DNA from: a virus
Strand: one strand, 5' to 3'
Length of the DNA: 64,000 bases
Virus genome (UHGV): UHGV-1483955
Shown: positions 1,054 to 4,339 of the stretch, piece by piece
Numbering within the stretch: position 1 is the first letter of the stretch
How the letters are laid out: every line of letters begins with the position of its first letter
Made by a program: the position numbers and the translations under genes
The notes under the pieces: generated by a model
Seen by the model: the letters and a program-made list of their open reading frames with translations, nothing else
What the model was told of the DNA's origin: nothing
Databases searched by the model: none

Positions 1054-1070
1054 ATTGCTCTAATAAATAT
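1054..1070 (+). promoter_or_regulatory. C1 repressor operator-like 17-mer ATTGCTCTAATAAATAT
   Basis: 16/17 match to P1 C1 operator consensus ATTGCTCTAATAAATTT; upstream of small ORF, rdgC-like and dmt. Confidence 0.7.
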
Positions 1071-1141
1071 TGTTTTTTATGTCGTGTTTTCGGTACCATT
1101 CAGCCATCGCCCTTCAATGGGCATTTGTTTGGAGTCGTCAG

Positions 1142-1426
1142 ATGCAGATGGAGCTAATAAGCCGCAAGGAGTTCGATAGCCGTGTAACCAGCGGTGAACT
1201 CGACAACTTGCAGGCTATCAAGGTGAAAGAAGGCTTTTGCCTCATTGGGAATCAGAGCGGAACAAATCGCGTTTTTATGCTTCGCCGTACGGATTTGAAG
1301 CCATTTGTCTGGAAGAACGAAATTGGTCCCAGCTCATACGCTCAAACGAGGGGGTGCCACAACCTGGCCTTTTTCTACAAAGACGAGCTTTCTGTGGTTG
1401 ATATTCAAGGGTTACAACATGTTTAA
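1142..1426 (+). CDS. hypothetical protein (about 94 aa)
   Basis: ORF downstream of C1 operator; its stop overlaps the rdgC-like start (ATGTTTAA), suggesting coupling. Confidence 0.4.
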
Positions 1427-2324
1427 GCACTGGAAAAACATTACTATTTATAAACTTTCTCGTGAGGCGGATCTGACCGACTTAGAAGATAAAAAGAAAA
1501 TGATCCTTTTCACGCCATGCGGTAGTCAGGATATGGCCAAGTTCGGTTTTGTATCTCCATTTGGTGATAATTCCGAAGTTATCGCTATGCATGGAAATGG
1601 TTTTATCCTTGTTGAAGCAAAGCGCGAAACAAAAATTCTTCCCCCGCCGGTTATCCAGCGAGCTATTCAAGAAAAAATTGAAAAACTTGAGCAAGAACAA
1701 GCGCGTAAACTGAAGAAAACAGAGAAGGACTCCCTGAAAGACGAAGTTCTGCATTCTCTTCTGCCACGGGCTTTTTCAAAGTTTTCTGTTATCCAGGCGA
1801 TCTACGACGGTTCAACTAAACGTATCTATATCAATGCCAGCGCGCGGCAGGCAGAGGATATGCTCGCGCTTATGCGTAAGTCTCTGGGTTCTCTTCCTGT
1901 TGTTCCCCTGAGTGTTGAAAATCCCATTGAATTAACGCTGACCGACTGGGTACGTGATGGTAGTGCTCCACAGGGATTTCAAATGGGGGATGCGGCAGAA
2001 CTTAAGGCAGTGCTTGAGGATGGCGGTATTGCCCGAGTGAAAAAGCAGGATTTGGGAAGCGATGAAATTTCCACACACCTGGAAGCTGGCAAGCTCGTTA
2101 CTAAGTTGGCACTCGACTGGCAGAACCGCATTAAATTTACACTGGACCATAACTTCAGCCTTACCAGCGTCAAATTTGCGGATGAATTGCTTGAGCAGAA
2201 CTCTGATATTGATAGTGAAGATGTTGCGCAGCGACTGGACGCAGATTTCTTCCTGTTGACCAGTGAAATTTCGTGCCTGGTTGATGCTCTGGTAAATGCC
2301 CTTGGTGGAGAGGCTAAGCAGTGA
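1419..2324 (+). CDS. rdgC: RdgC-like recombination-associated protein
   Basis: Translation ([69 protein letters not shown]) matches the RdgC family along its length. Confidence 0.8.
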
Positions 2325-4339
2325 AAGAGCTGTGCTATGGATCTGTTTGCAGTGGAATTGAAGCCGCGAGTATTGCCTGGGAACCGTTGGGTATGCGTCC
2401 GGCGTGGTTTGCTGAAATCGAGCCTTTTCCATCTGCCGTTCTTGCGCACCGCTGGCCCCATGTCGCCAACCTTGGCGACATGACAAAACTTGCCAAAAAA
2501 GTCCTGGCTGGGGAAATCGAATCCCCTGATGTGCTCGTCGGGGGTACGCCTTGTCAGGCATTCAGTATCGCGGGCTTACGTGGTGGGCTTGATGATGAAC
2601 GCGGCGCGCTAACTTTGAAGTATGTGGAGCTTGCAAATGCAATTGACGACAAACGGTCTGAGTCCTTCCTCAAACCGACAGTTATCGTCTGGGAAAATGT
2701 CCCAGGAGTCCTGTCATCGGCAGATAACGCCTTCGGATGTTTCCTTGCCGGATTGGCTGGAGAAGATGCGCCATTTGAACCAGGTGATCGACCTGAATCA
2801 GGAAAAAGTAACGCGTTCTGGCGGTGGGATGGCAAAACCGGTTGCCATGCTCCAAAGTGGCCGCAGTGTGGTTGTATTTATGGACCGCAGCGAAAGGTGG
2901 CCTGGAGAATCCTTGATGCCCAATACTTCGGAGTGGCACAACGACGCCGACGCGTGTTTGTTGTCGCAAGTGCTCGAACAGACCTCGATCCCGCAACGGT
3001 ACTTTTTGAGTTCGAAGGCGTGCGCCGGAATATTGCGCCGAGCAGAGGCGAGGGGAAGGAAACTACCAGATATACTTCAAACATCGCTATCAGATCTTGC
3101 GATGATACAAACATAGTTGCCATGGCACATGGGCAAGGAGGGGCTGAGATAAAAACCGATAATTCGGCACCAACTTTGACATGTAACCATGAAGCACCAA
3201 TTGTATTGCTCGTCGACGGTAGAATGCGCCGTCTTATCCCTGTCGAATGTGAAAGGCTGCAAGGTTTTCCTGATGGACATACATTGATCCCTACGGAAAA
3301 GCGTAAAAAAGTTTCTTCAGATGAACTGGCATACCTTCGCAAAAACTATCCTGATTTGAGCGAAGAAGAGGCCGCGATGCTTGCAGCTGACGGACCGCGT
3401 TACAAAGCGATCGGCAATAGTATGGCGATACCAGTAATGCGCTGGATTGGCGATCGGATTGCCAAGGCTGCATGTCGGCAGAAGGAAGGGAGTGAAACAA
3501 AAGAGCGAAAAGTTAAACCAGCGGCAGAATTCGAACGGTCCATATTCAAATGGGCTGGTGGAAAATTTGGTGTTCTGGAACAAATCTTTCGCTATTTGCC
3601 AGAAGGGAAGCGCCTGATTGAGCCTTTCGTTGGTGGCGGAGCTGTCTTCATGAATGCCGGATACCAGGAAAATCTGCTAAATGATGTGAATGCTGACCTG
3701 ATTAACTTTTACAAGACTCTGCAACGCGAGGCGCATTCACTTATCACTCTGGCACATCGTTTCTTCCAGGACTACAACACGCAGGAAGGATACCTGGCAG
3801 TACGGAATGCGTTTAACAAACAAGTCTATGATGATTTACATCGCGCAGCGGCGTTTTTGTTCCTGAACCGACATTGTTTTAACGGATTGACGCGTTACAA
3901 CCAAGCCGGTGAGTTCAATGTCGGTTATGGGAAGTATAAAACTCCGTATTTCCCATTGCAGGAGATGGAAGCCTTCCTTGGTGCGGAAGGGCGTTCTGAG
4001 TTTGTATGTGGTGATTTTGCTGCGGTGATTGAAGCTGCCGGAGAAGGAGATGTCATCTTTTGTGATCCGCCGTATGAACCGCTCCCAAATACAGAGGGAT
4101 TCACGAACTATTCCGGTCATGACTTTAAGTTTGAAGAGCAAAAACGCCTGGCGTCTCTGTTGACGGATGCTCATCGCCGAGGTGCAAAGGTTCTCATTAC
4201 TAACAGTGGCGCGCCAAACATCAGAGAACTTTATCAGGACAGTGGCTTCAGAGTGGAACCTCTTTTTGCCAGACGTTCTGTGTCTTGTAAGGGGGACACT
4301 CGAGGTGTTGCTCATGACGTTATAGCAATATTGCTCTAA
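2321..4339 (+). CDS. dmt: bifunctional DNA methyltransferase: N-terminal C5-cytosine MTase fused to C-terminal Dam-like N6-adenine MTase
   Basis: N-terminal PCQ (GGTPCQAFS) and ENV (WENVPGV) motifs; C-terminal [16 protein letters not shown] AdoMet motif and DPPY; GTG start overlaps rdgC stop. Confidence 0.9.

Follow-up and report, generated by a model that had tools for sequence, protein, structure and literature searches.

A probable C1-repressed uhr-hrdC-dmt operon of the P1/P7 type, with a variable target-recognition stretch in its fused methyltransferase

What do an RdgC-like gene and a gene for a fused cytosine/adenine methyltransferase do together behind a phage repressor operator? The question is raised by positions 1054-4339 of the window, the whole 64,000-nucleotide stretch of viral genome UHGV-1483955 that was analysed. 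An earlier note had placed a C1 operator, a small open reading frame, an RdgC-family gene and dmt there, and had read them as a recombination-modulating protein co-expressed with a self-methylating antirestriction enzyme. The source of the window is a P1-like phage-plasmid of E. coli, and this part of it is very probably the early, C1-repressed uhr-hrdC-dmt operon of a phage-plasmid of the P1/P7 type. All four elements were found where they had been placed, and the operon comprises the following features:

1054-1070, plus strand: C1 repressor operator Op68/Odmt, ATTGCTCTAATAAATAT, with one mismatch to the consensus (P1/P7 annotation)
1070-1099, plus strand: promoter Pdmt (coordinates transferred from the P1 record, 65161-65190)
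1142-1426, plus strand: uhr, 94 aa (100% identical to P1 Uhr and P7 Upf64.0)
1419-2324, plus strand: hrdC, 301 aa, RdgC-family protein (Pfam PF04381)
2321-4339, plus strand: dmt, P7-type allele, 672 aa (Pfam PF00145 and PF02086)

The records of P1 (AF234172 / NC_005856) and P7 (AF503408) annotate the same stretch with Op68/Odmt, Pdmt, uhr, hrdC and dmt, and over a 3.8-kb region the window is 97-98% identical to both, with the annotated features alike. As in P1, the operon is flanked in the window by upfC, a PAAR gene, on one side and by Oban with tRNA-Asn/Thr on the other, and the gene overlaps are the same; gene content, order and overlaps all agree with the annotated P1 dmt region, the comparison by which the earlier note had proposed to check its reading. 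The P7 operon, upf64.0-hrdC-dam (AF503408), has the same operator and the same type of Dmt allele, and differs from that of the window by point differences only; the P7 record adds a predicted internal late promoter, LPdam2. The order uhr, hrdC, dmt with overlaps of 8 and 4 nt, by which the Punavirus operon is recognized, is present in the window, and hundreds of P1-like plasmids carry this operon. The public records of P1 and P7 already contain the operator and the three genes with their overlaps, as well as the bifunctional design of Dmt. The uhr-hrdC-dmt finding re-derives the P1 annotation and adds nothing to those records; it serves as a positive control, in that a real operon was recoverable from raw sequence.

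The operator at 1054-1070 matches 16 of the 17 positions of the asymmetric 17-bp C1 consensus ATTGCTCTAATAAATTT. C1-like sites with up to three mismatches number 15 in the whole window, against 0.24 expected by chance. The site is identical at all 17 positions to P1 Op68/Odmt and P7 Op(dam), annotated as a monovalent operator, and the P1 record equates the Op68 sequence with the deposited fragment M25413; the C1 operator that had been called from the letters thus bears the same sequence as an annotated one. Pdmt consists of a -35 element TTGTTT (1070-1075), an 18-nt spacer and a -10 element TACCAT (1094-1099), with the operator both abutting and overlapping the -35 element, and its sequence is the same in the window, P1 and P7. 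A generic scan for sigma-70 promoters did not detect Pdmt, the consensus match being too weak, so its placement follows the P1 annotation. Co-expression of the rdgC-like gene and dmt under C1, as the earlier note proposed, draws support from the P1 record: its annotated C1-controlled Op68/Pdmt region has the same operator and, throughout, the same leader. By this identity, C1 bound in the lysogen to the 17-bp Op68, against the -35 element of a weak sigma-70 promoter, would keep the operon off, and induction or infection would give a single mRNA whose three cistrons are translated in succession. During infection the hrdC and dmt transcripts show like behavior (bioRxiv 10.64898/2025.12.28.696737).

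The three genes are tightly packed. As the earlier note had read, the RdgC-family gene starts within the end of the small ORF, the hrdC ATG at 1419 lying 8 nt inside the 3' end of uhr (ATGTTTAA; uhr stop at 1424-1426), and dmt opens with a GTG at 2321 that shares letters with the hrdC stop, TGA at 2322-2324 (GTGA, 2321-2324). A Shine-Dalgarno sequence, GGAGAGG, ends 7 nt 5' of the dmt GTG. Tight overlaps are also found in relatives with just 53-79% protein identity, Salmonella P1-like elements in which the junctions read ATGTTTAA and TGATG; these elements carry a PAAR gene on the minus strand and an operator-like site, followed by uhr, hrdC and dmt. Spacing from operator to dmt is 1267 nt in 70 of 78 IMG/VR loci. 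The geometry, with the ATGTTTAA and GTGA overlaps and Shine-Dalgarno sequences lying within the upstream genes, favors translational coupling and would allow it to proceed by re-initiation.

The next C1-controlled unit begins at the end of dmt, and a terminator-like element follows:

4330-4357: divalent C1 operator Oban, made up of Op72a (plus strand, 4330-4346) and Op72b (minus strand, 4341-4357) (P1/P7 annotation)
4520-4549, plus strand: terminator-like hairpin with T-run (scan; conserved in P1 and P7)

Oban overlaps the final codons and stop of dmt; Op72a has no mismatch and Op72b two mismatches to the C1 consensus, and alignment with P1 and P7 agrees with these assignments. The hairpin lies 180 nt 3' of dmt, within the region that P1 annotates as dicF-like; the Rfam DicF model had no match in this region at either gathering or permissive thresholds.

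The first cistron, preceded by GGAG 9 nt upstream of its start, is the small ORF of the earlier note, and its product is Uhr, without a single difference from the P1 and P7 proteins. Uhr matches no Pfam family, and an exhaustive HMMER search of 1.84 billion representative proteins found homologues only in P1-like elements. Its AlphaFold model is beta-rich and of low confidence (pLDDT 66.6); compared with PDB folds it gave none at E<1e-3, the best being the FtsH N-domain and ribosomal proteins at E ~0.01. PHROG 2213 is labeled a MazG-like NTP pyrophosphohydrolase, a label repeated in RefSeq phage records. We rejected this assignment for Uhr because of the lack of a Pfam hit, the restriction to P1-like copies, the beta-rich model and the absence of a significant fold match.

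The second cistron is a full-length member of the RdgC family. Over its entire length HrdC matches the RdgC profile PF04381 (positions 3-298 of the 298 in the profile, E 5.6e-98), which bears out the family assignment of the earlier note, and it aligns over its full length with E. coli RdgC (PDB 2OWL; E 2.9e-113, 61.5% identity, 301 against 303 aa). It is ~99% identical to P1 HrdC and nearly identical to P7 HrdC as well. E. coli RdgC is a dimeric ring with non-specific affinity for DNA and an inhibitor of RecA functions (PMC11077077), and, by analogy with this biochemistry, HrdC is most likely a DNA-encircling ring dimer that would damp RecA filament activity on phage DNA as it replicates in the lytic cycle. 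Unlike E. coli RdgC, HrdC is phage-borne, controlled by a repressor and expressed in lytic growth. Counting against the proposed role is lambda RexA, a structural relative whose work is exclusion and control of the switch, not RecA inhibition (PMC11077077, PMC12315714).

The adjacency of hrdC and dmt, kept with its tight overlap in relatives down to 53-79% identity, together with the co-variation of their transcripts (bioRxiv 10.64898/2025.12.28.696737), might suggest that HrdC and Dmt form a two-protein machine in which HrdC holds or shields DNA for Dmt, or that both act in pac processing. We consider this highly improbable: no physical or genetic interaction between the two is on record, RdgC homologues of lambdoid phages occur in other contexts, adjoining cI (PMC12315714), and all examples are supplied by a single phage lineage, so that the conservation could be plain inheritance. 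A locus search by single protein returned P1-like contigs only.

The third cistron encodes the fused methyltransferase, within which the following parts can be delimited:

2321-3475, plus strand: C5-cytosine methyltransferase module, aa 1-385 (from motifs in the protein sequence)
3029-3226, plus strand: variable target-recognition stretch of the C5 module, "module D", aa 237-302, 66 aa
3533-4336, plus strand: Dam-like N6-adenine methyltransferase module, aa 405-672 (PF02086, E 1.2e-57)

Dmt is 97% identical to P7 Dam and 91% identical to P1 Dmt, from which its divergence is confined to one stretch, and the same coding sequence is annotated by RefSeq on a near-identical plasmid. The order of modules proposed for it, C5-cytosine N-terminal and Dam-like C-terminal, holds: both Pfam domains are found and their catalytic motifs are intact. 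The D12 N6-adenine methylase match covers residues 411-644, with DPPY at aa 582-585 (4064-4075), and the module matches E. coli Dam structures (PDB 2G1P and related) at E 1e-58. Like E. coli Dam, this half has the signature of the alpha-type D12 fold, and K410, N521, L523 and R525 align with the GATC-contacting residues K9, N120, L122 and R124 of that enzyme. It differs from E. coli Dam in its fusion behind a C5 methylase and in the substitutions Y119 to F, P134 to G and R137 to K. Only ~5 residues distinguish it from the C-terminal half of P1 Dmt.

In P1, packaging and progeny require methylation by Dmt or by host Dam; Dmt performs Dam-type GATC methylation of the pac sites, which is required for packaging and is essential only in Dam- hosts (PMC12707154; PMC11437467). 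GATC methylation is established for the P1 enzyme, and its near-identity allows the role to be carried over to the Dam half of the window Dmt, which would methylate GATC on replicating phage DNA and so render pac fully methylated and cleavable, and headful packaging could then proceed in Dam- hosts too. A self-methylating antirestriction enzyme, as the earlier note described Dmt, is not what the P1 literature documents: the role on record is pac GATC methylation for packaging (PMC12707154; PMC11437467).

The N-terminal half of Dmt matches the Pfam C5 DNA_methylase family (PF00145), and M.HhaI and M.HaeIII match it over motifs IV-VI. Its motifs run in order from I (CSGIEA) through IV (GTPCQ, with Cys78 at 2552-2554), VI (ENV, as WENV) and VIII (QRRRRVF), followed by the variable stretch, to IX and X (GNSMAIPV), and all are present; motif I is atypical when set against the canonical FxGxG. 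In many Dmt relatives an intein occurs at the catalytic cysteine. Comparison with a Salmonella relative gave a dN/dS of ~0.18 for the C5 core, which on this measure is under purifying selection, and in the same comparison the core is 74% identical as against 53% for the Dam half. This selection gives m5C formation by Dmt indirect support only. The P1 record says of C5 methylation by Dmt only "perhaps", and a literature search returned nothing relevant on m5C activity of Dmt, on a Dmt intein or on Op68.

Between motifs VIII and IX lies the target-recognition stretch, which, a few residues aside, is the sole real divergence of the window Dmt from P1 Dmt. The 754-aa P1 protein has an unrelated stretch of 148 aa in place of the 66 aa of the window, while P7 Dmt, likewise of 672 aa, has the same 66-aa stretch at 95.5% identity. 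The window allele is of this P7 type, the shortest form known in the comparison (66 aa). Relatives carry mosaics of shared modules of 148-268 aa at this position, and some of these include module D. A large protein search with Dmt returned only near-identical clusters of 672 and 1013 aa, informative on how often the intein occurs but not on more distant architectures. If a multi-TRD enzyme is taken to have at least two tandem modules between motifs VIII and IX, the window allele, a single module with one PTL core, falls outside the class; relatives with stretches of 179-268 aa show several modules.

The most likely activity of the C5 half is methylation of a single short site with a cytosine on the DNA of the progeny, a modification that would pre-protect this DNA against the cognate restriction system of the next host. 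The contrary view, that this half is catalytically silent and has been kept to aid the Dam half structurally or by binding DNA, or else for regulation, leaving Dmt functionally a Dam only, finds some encouragement in the non-canonical motif I, in a non-committal P1 annotation with m5C for P1 not found in the literature searched, and in a RefSeq name that denotes a Dam-family enzyme only. This is unlikely, however, given that PCQ with its catalytic Cys, ENV, QxRxR and motifs IX and X have all stayed intact and that the core, with its dN/dS of ~0.18, is conserved more strongly than the Dam half. An exchange of target-recognition cassettes makes sense only if recognition of a DNA sequence matters, and the homing intein of many alleles sits exactly at the catalytic Cys, where splicing is needed to restore PCQ.

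The variable target-recognition cassettes of the relatives make antirestriction by the C5 half plausible. Bacillus phages have multi-TRD protective methylases (PMC12707154), and Dmt relatives resemble these enzymes in carrying consecutive short modules with PTL- or PSL-type cores between motifs VIII and IX, in varied combinations and with single modules precisely gained or lost. In contrast to the Bacillus enzymes, the window Dmt has one module and is fused to a Dam, and the sequence relationship is detectable in the common C5 core only. The phages SPR, phi3T and rho11s of Bacillus are reportedly the source of multispecific C5 methyltransferases. We tentatively suggest that the C5 half is a cassette-type protective methylase whose short interchangeable modules are shuffled among P1-like phage-plasmids. 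The window may then hold a minimal, one-module allele of a series that reaches up to ~4 modules in relatives, and it is conceivable, with the same reserve, that m5C specificities differ by lineage.

A stronger version of this reading would make Dmt chiefly an antirestriction enzyme, both halves pre-methylating progeny against restriction in the next host, with packaging control secondary. Nothing in the operon but the C5 target-recognition stretch is hypervariable, and its modules are shuffled among relatives over 66-268 aa in a manner that recalls the protective multi-TRD enzymes of Bacillus phages (PMC12707154); the C5 core shows purifying selection, and expression of the operon is limited to lytic growth (P1 record), all of which would fit. 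We nevertheless regard it as doubtful, since the sole phenotype documented for P1 dmt concerns Dam- hosts, where it serves pac methylation and packaging (PMC12707154; PMC11437467), and the DNA of the usual Dam+ enterobacterial hosts is already GATC-methylated, so that GATC methylation would not be protective. An m5C specificity is on record for no allele, and P1 already has dedicated antirestriction proteins in DarA and DarB (PMC11437467). Against the main reading of the operon, CRISPRi knockdown in a Dam+ host found uhr, hrdC and dmt each to be non-essential (PMC10695390), so the proposed roles are dispensable in laboratory conditions.

The mosaic of C5 target-recognition modules across P1-like elements is the only part of these results with research potential. 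If the cassette reading is true, the enterobacteria would have in Dmt an equivalent of the multispecific methylases of Bacillus phages, fused to a packaging Dam, and the P1 family would possess a programmable antirestriction methylase that its plain annotation as Dam has kept from notice.

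The interval 1054-4339 contains every element that the earlier note had placed there, at the positions it named, and the uhr-hrdC-dmt arrangement is already known. A megablast search with 900-4700 of the window returned 20 phage records at 95-99% identity, every one P1, P7 or P1-like; the first 25 kb of the window shares 99.6% identity with pXJW9B263-2, a 96-kb IncY plasmid of E. coli, and is covered to at least 80% by more than 240 plasmid records. The phage and plasmid matches together thus identify the window as a P1-like phage-plasmid. The control sites and gene boundaries are as follows.

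1054-1070: C1 operator ATTGCTCTAATAAATAT, one mismatch to the C1 consensus
1070-1099: promoter Pdmt, TTGTTT (1070-1075), 18-nt spacer, TACCAT (1094-1099), transferred from the P1 record
1142-1426: uhr, with GGAG 9 nt upstream
1419: ATG start of hrdC, within ATGTTTAA, whose TAA is the uhr stop
2321: GTG start of dmt, within GTGA, whose TGA is the hrdC stop
4339: end of dmt, its last ten bases inside Op72a
4330-4346 (Op72a) and 4341-4357: divalent operator Oban

The operator and the entire 72-nt leader to the uhr ATG are identical among the window, P1 and P7. The P1 record annotates the same site as a C1-controlled operator (Op68), the last base of which is the start of the sigma-70 promoter Pdmt, and the P7 record names it Op(dam), with predicted control of upf64.0 (uhr), hrdC and dam (dmt). 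The operon structure and C1 control proposed earlier hold on this identity with the annotated P1 region; repression of Pdmt by C1 is established for P1 and, transferred by identity, would operate in a lysogen of the present element. The window contains 15 C1-operator-like sites with three or fewer mismatches, against 0.24 expected from shuffles. Pdmt is a weak promoter and was not picked up by a generic promoter scan of the window. Upstream of the operator lies a divergent, minus-strand PAAR-motif gene of 94 aa, UpfC (688-972), which scores 26.0 bits in Pfam, just below the 27-bit cut-off, and is annotated as PAAR in the P1-like element RCS47.

A search of 1.84 billion representative proteins gave Uhr homologues in P1-like elements only; the most distant, at 65-68% identity, lie on Salmonella contigs of about 90 kb. 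These contigs retain the order PAAR gene (minus strand), uhr, hrdC, dmt, and in them the same promoter context, TGTTTTTT...TACCAT, comes after an operator-like site, TTTGTTCTAATAAATTA. Their uhr/hrdC overlap is the same ATGTTTAA, and their hrdC/dmt overlap is TGATG, preceded by a conserved GGAGAGG that in the window ends 7 nt upstream of the dmt GTG. Among 78 IMG/VR P1-like loci, 70 have an operator-to-dmt distance of exactly 1267 nt. Retention of the tight overlaps across 53-79% protein identity, in examples that all belong to one phage lineage, supports the view that translational coupling is selected for.

Downstream of dmt, the Salmonella P1-like elements L006-L009 differ from the window in having a 205-aa gene (9717-10334 in L006) coupled through a TAATG overlap with the dmt end; in L006 and L007 a Sequestin-domain gene comes next. 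Neither gene is present in the window, and Pfam gave no match for the 205-aa one. In the dicF-like leader downstream of Oban, at 4420-4460, a short block reads GGGGTAGTGACTCCTTCCCC in the window and P7 and CTGGGCCTAGTCCTCCCAG in P1; this block resembles a hairpin preserved through changes in its two arms. Rfam did not find DicF in this region. For the stretch of roughly 1.1 kb after tRNA-Thr (5173-5968), the near-identical plasmid has a gene table that lists no CDS but leaves out RNA genes and pseudogenes. This stretch holds a 23-nt inverted repeat and several interleaved direct-repeat families of up to four copies spaced at about 200-280 nt, and may consist of sRNA-like units in an array. At 5943-6063 Rfam gives a match to the sRNA STnc100 that stays below threshold (37.8 bits; gathering score 47; E 4e-6). 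P1 has plp/upl/tciA at this position, directly behind the tRNA cluster. In the window an SPFH-domain lipoprotein gene (6314-7141) sits between the tRNA cluster and ban, a dnaB homologue; after it comes a tRNA whose anticodon is CAT (7169-7244), the probable counterpart of P1 trnI.

Uhr is 100% identical in the window, P1 and P7 and matches no Pfam family. RefSeq phage records and PHROG 2213 label it a nucleoside triphosphate pyrophosphohydrolase, which Pfam, HMMER, structure and fold searches do not support; the structure model is beta-rich and of low confidence (pLDDT 66.6), with no fold match better than E 0.01, and the label appears to be an annotation error carried from record to record. 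HrdC is nearly identical to its P1 and P7 counterparts, and its assignment to the RdgC family is borne out by a Pfam RdgC profile covering it end to end (E 5.6e-98) and by full-length alignment with crystallised E. coli RdgC (E 2.9e-113, 61.5% identity). E. coli RdgC, a ring dimer, binds DNA non-specifically and reduces strand exchange and ATPase activity by RecA as well as LexA cleavage (PMC11077077). HrdC would act similarly during lytic replication, or its role could instead resemble that of a structural relative, lambda RexA. During P1vir infection, hrdC and dmt transcripts vary in parallel (bioRxiv 10.64898/2025.12.28.696737), and uhr, hrdC and dmt are each dispensable in a normal host under CRISPRi knockdown (PMC10695390).

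Dmt (672 aa) combines an N-terminal C5 DNA_methylase part with a D12 N6-adenine domain at residues 411-644 (Pfam). The C5 half carries motifs I (CSGIEA, atypical), IV (GTPCQ, with catalytic Cys78), VI (WENV), VIII (QRRRRVF), IX and X (GNSMAIPV). The Dam half aligns with structures of E. coli Dam (E 1e-58), contains DPPY and has counterparts of Dam K9, N120, L122 and R124. Neither module is absent or visibly broken in sequence; together with the RdgC profile match, this means that neither refutation foreseen in the earlier note occurred. The Dam activity of P1 Dmt methylates GATC, as needed at pac sites for packaging (PMC12707154; PMC11437467), so that dmt is essential only in Dam- hosts. Transferred by identity, the Dam half of the window protein would do the same. 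The predicted role of the C5 half is to methylate a single site that contains cytosine.

As packaging is the only documented role of Dmt, its description as an antirestriction enzyme was the weakest part of the earlier reading: it is not a known function and is plausible for the C5 half only, with some indirect support from relatives. The window protein departs from P1 Dmt (754 aa) solely in the stretch that separates C5 motifs VIII and IX, where the target-recognition domain lies. This stretch is 66 aa long in the window and in P7; P1 has an unrelated one of 148 aa, and other P1-like elements have 179, 201, 250, 256 or 268 aa. These stretches are mosaics of short shared modules (window 3029-3226 compared with the related loci L001, L006-L008, L037 and L055). 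Two Salmonella alleles contain the P1 stretch at 69% identity; it is cleanly missing from a third, which in all else is 99-100% identical to one of these two. The core of the 66-aa stretch is found again, with 24 of 28 residues identical, as a unit within an array of 201 aa, and at 78% in Cronobacter phage JK004. Against a Salmonella allele the C5 core of the window is 74% identical, with a dN/dS of about 0.18 that is approximate because synonymous sites are near or beyond saturation; the Dam half is 53% identical. The mosaics, and the clean presence or absence of one module, suggest that the modules are exchangeable target-recognition cassettes. In its conserved catalytic core and cassette-like turnover of the recognition stretch the family resembles the multi-TRD protective methylases of Bacillus phages; the window allele itself, with one module only, falls outside the multi-TRD definition.

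An intein of 341 aa, with Hint and LAGLIDADG domains, interrupts the C5 PCQ motif of many Dmt alleles precisely in front of the catalytic Cys (GTP|C...HN|CQAF), at the equivalent of window position 2552 (Cys78 codon). It is present in RCS47 Dmt (L003 1722-5009, 1095 aa), in abundant 1013-aa clusters of E. coli, Salmonella and E. fergusonii (P0034-P0147) and in about 18 of 78 IMG/VR P1-like loci; the window allele is intein-free. No description of this intein was found in the literature searched. The intein and the cassette-type recognition stretches of the Dmt family are the sole items here that might repay experiment.
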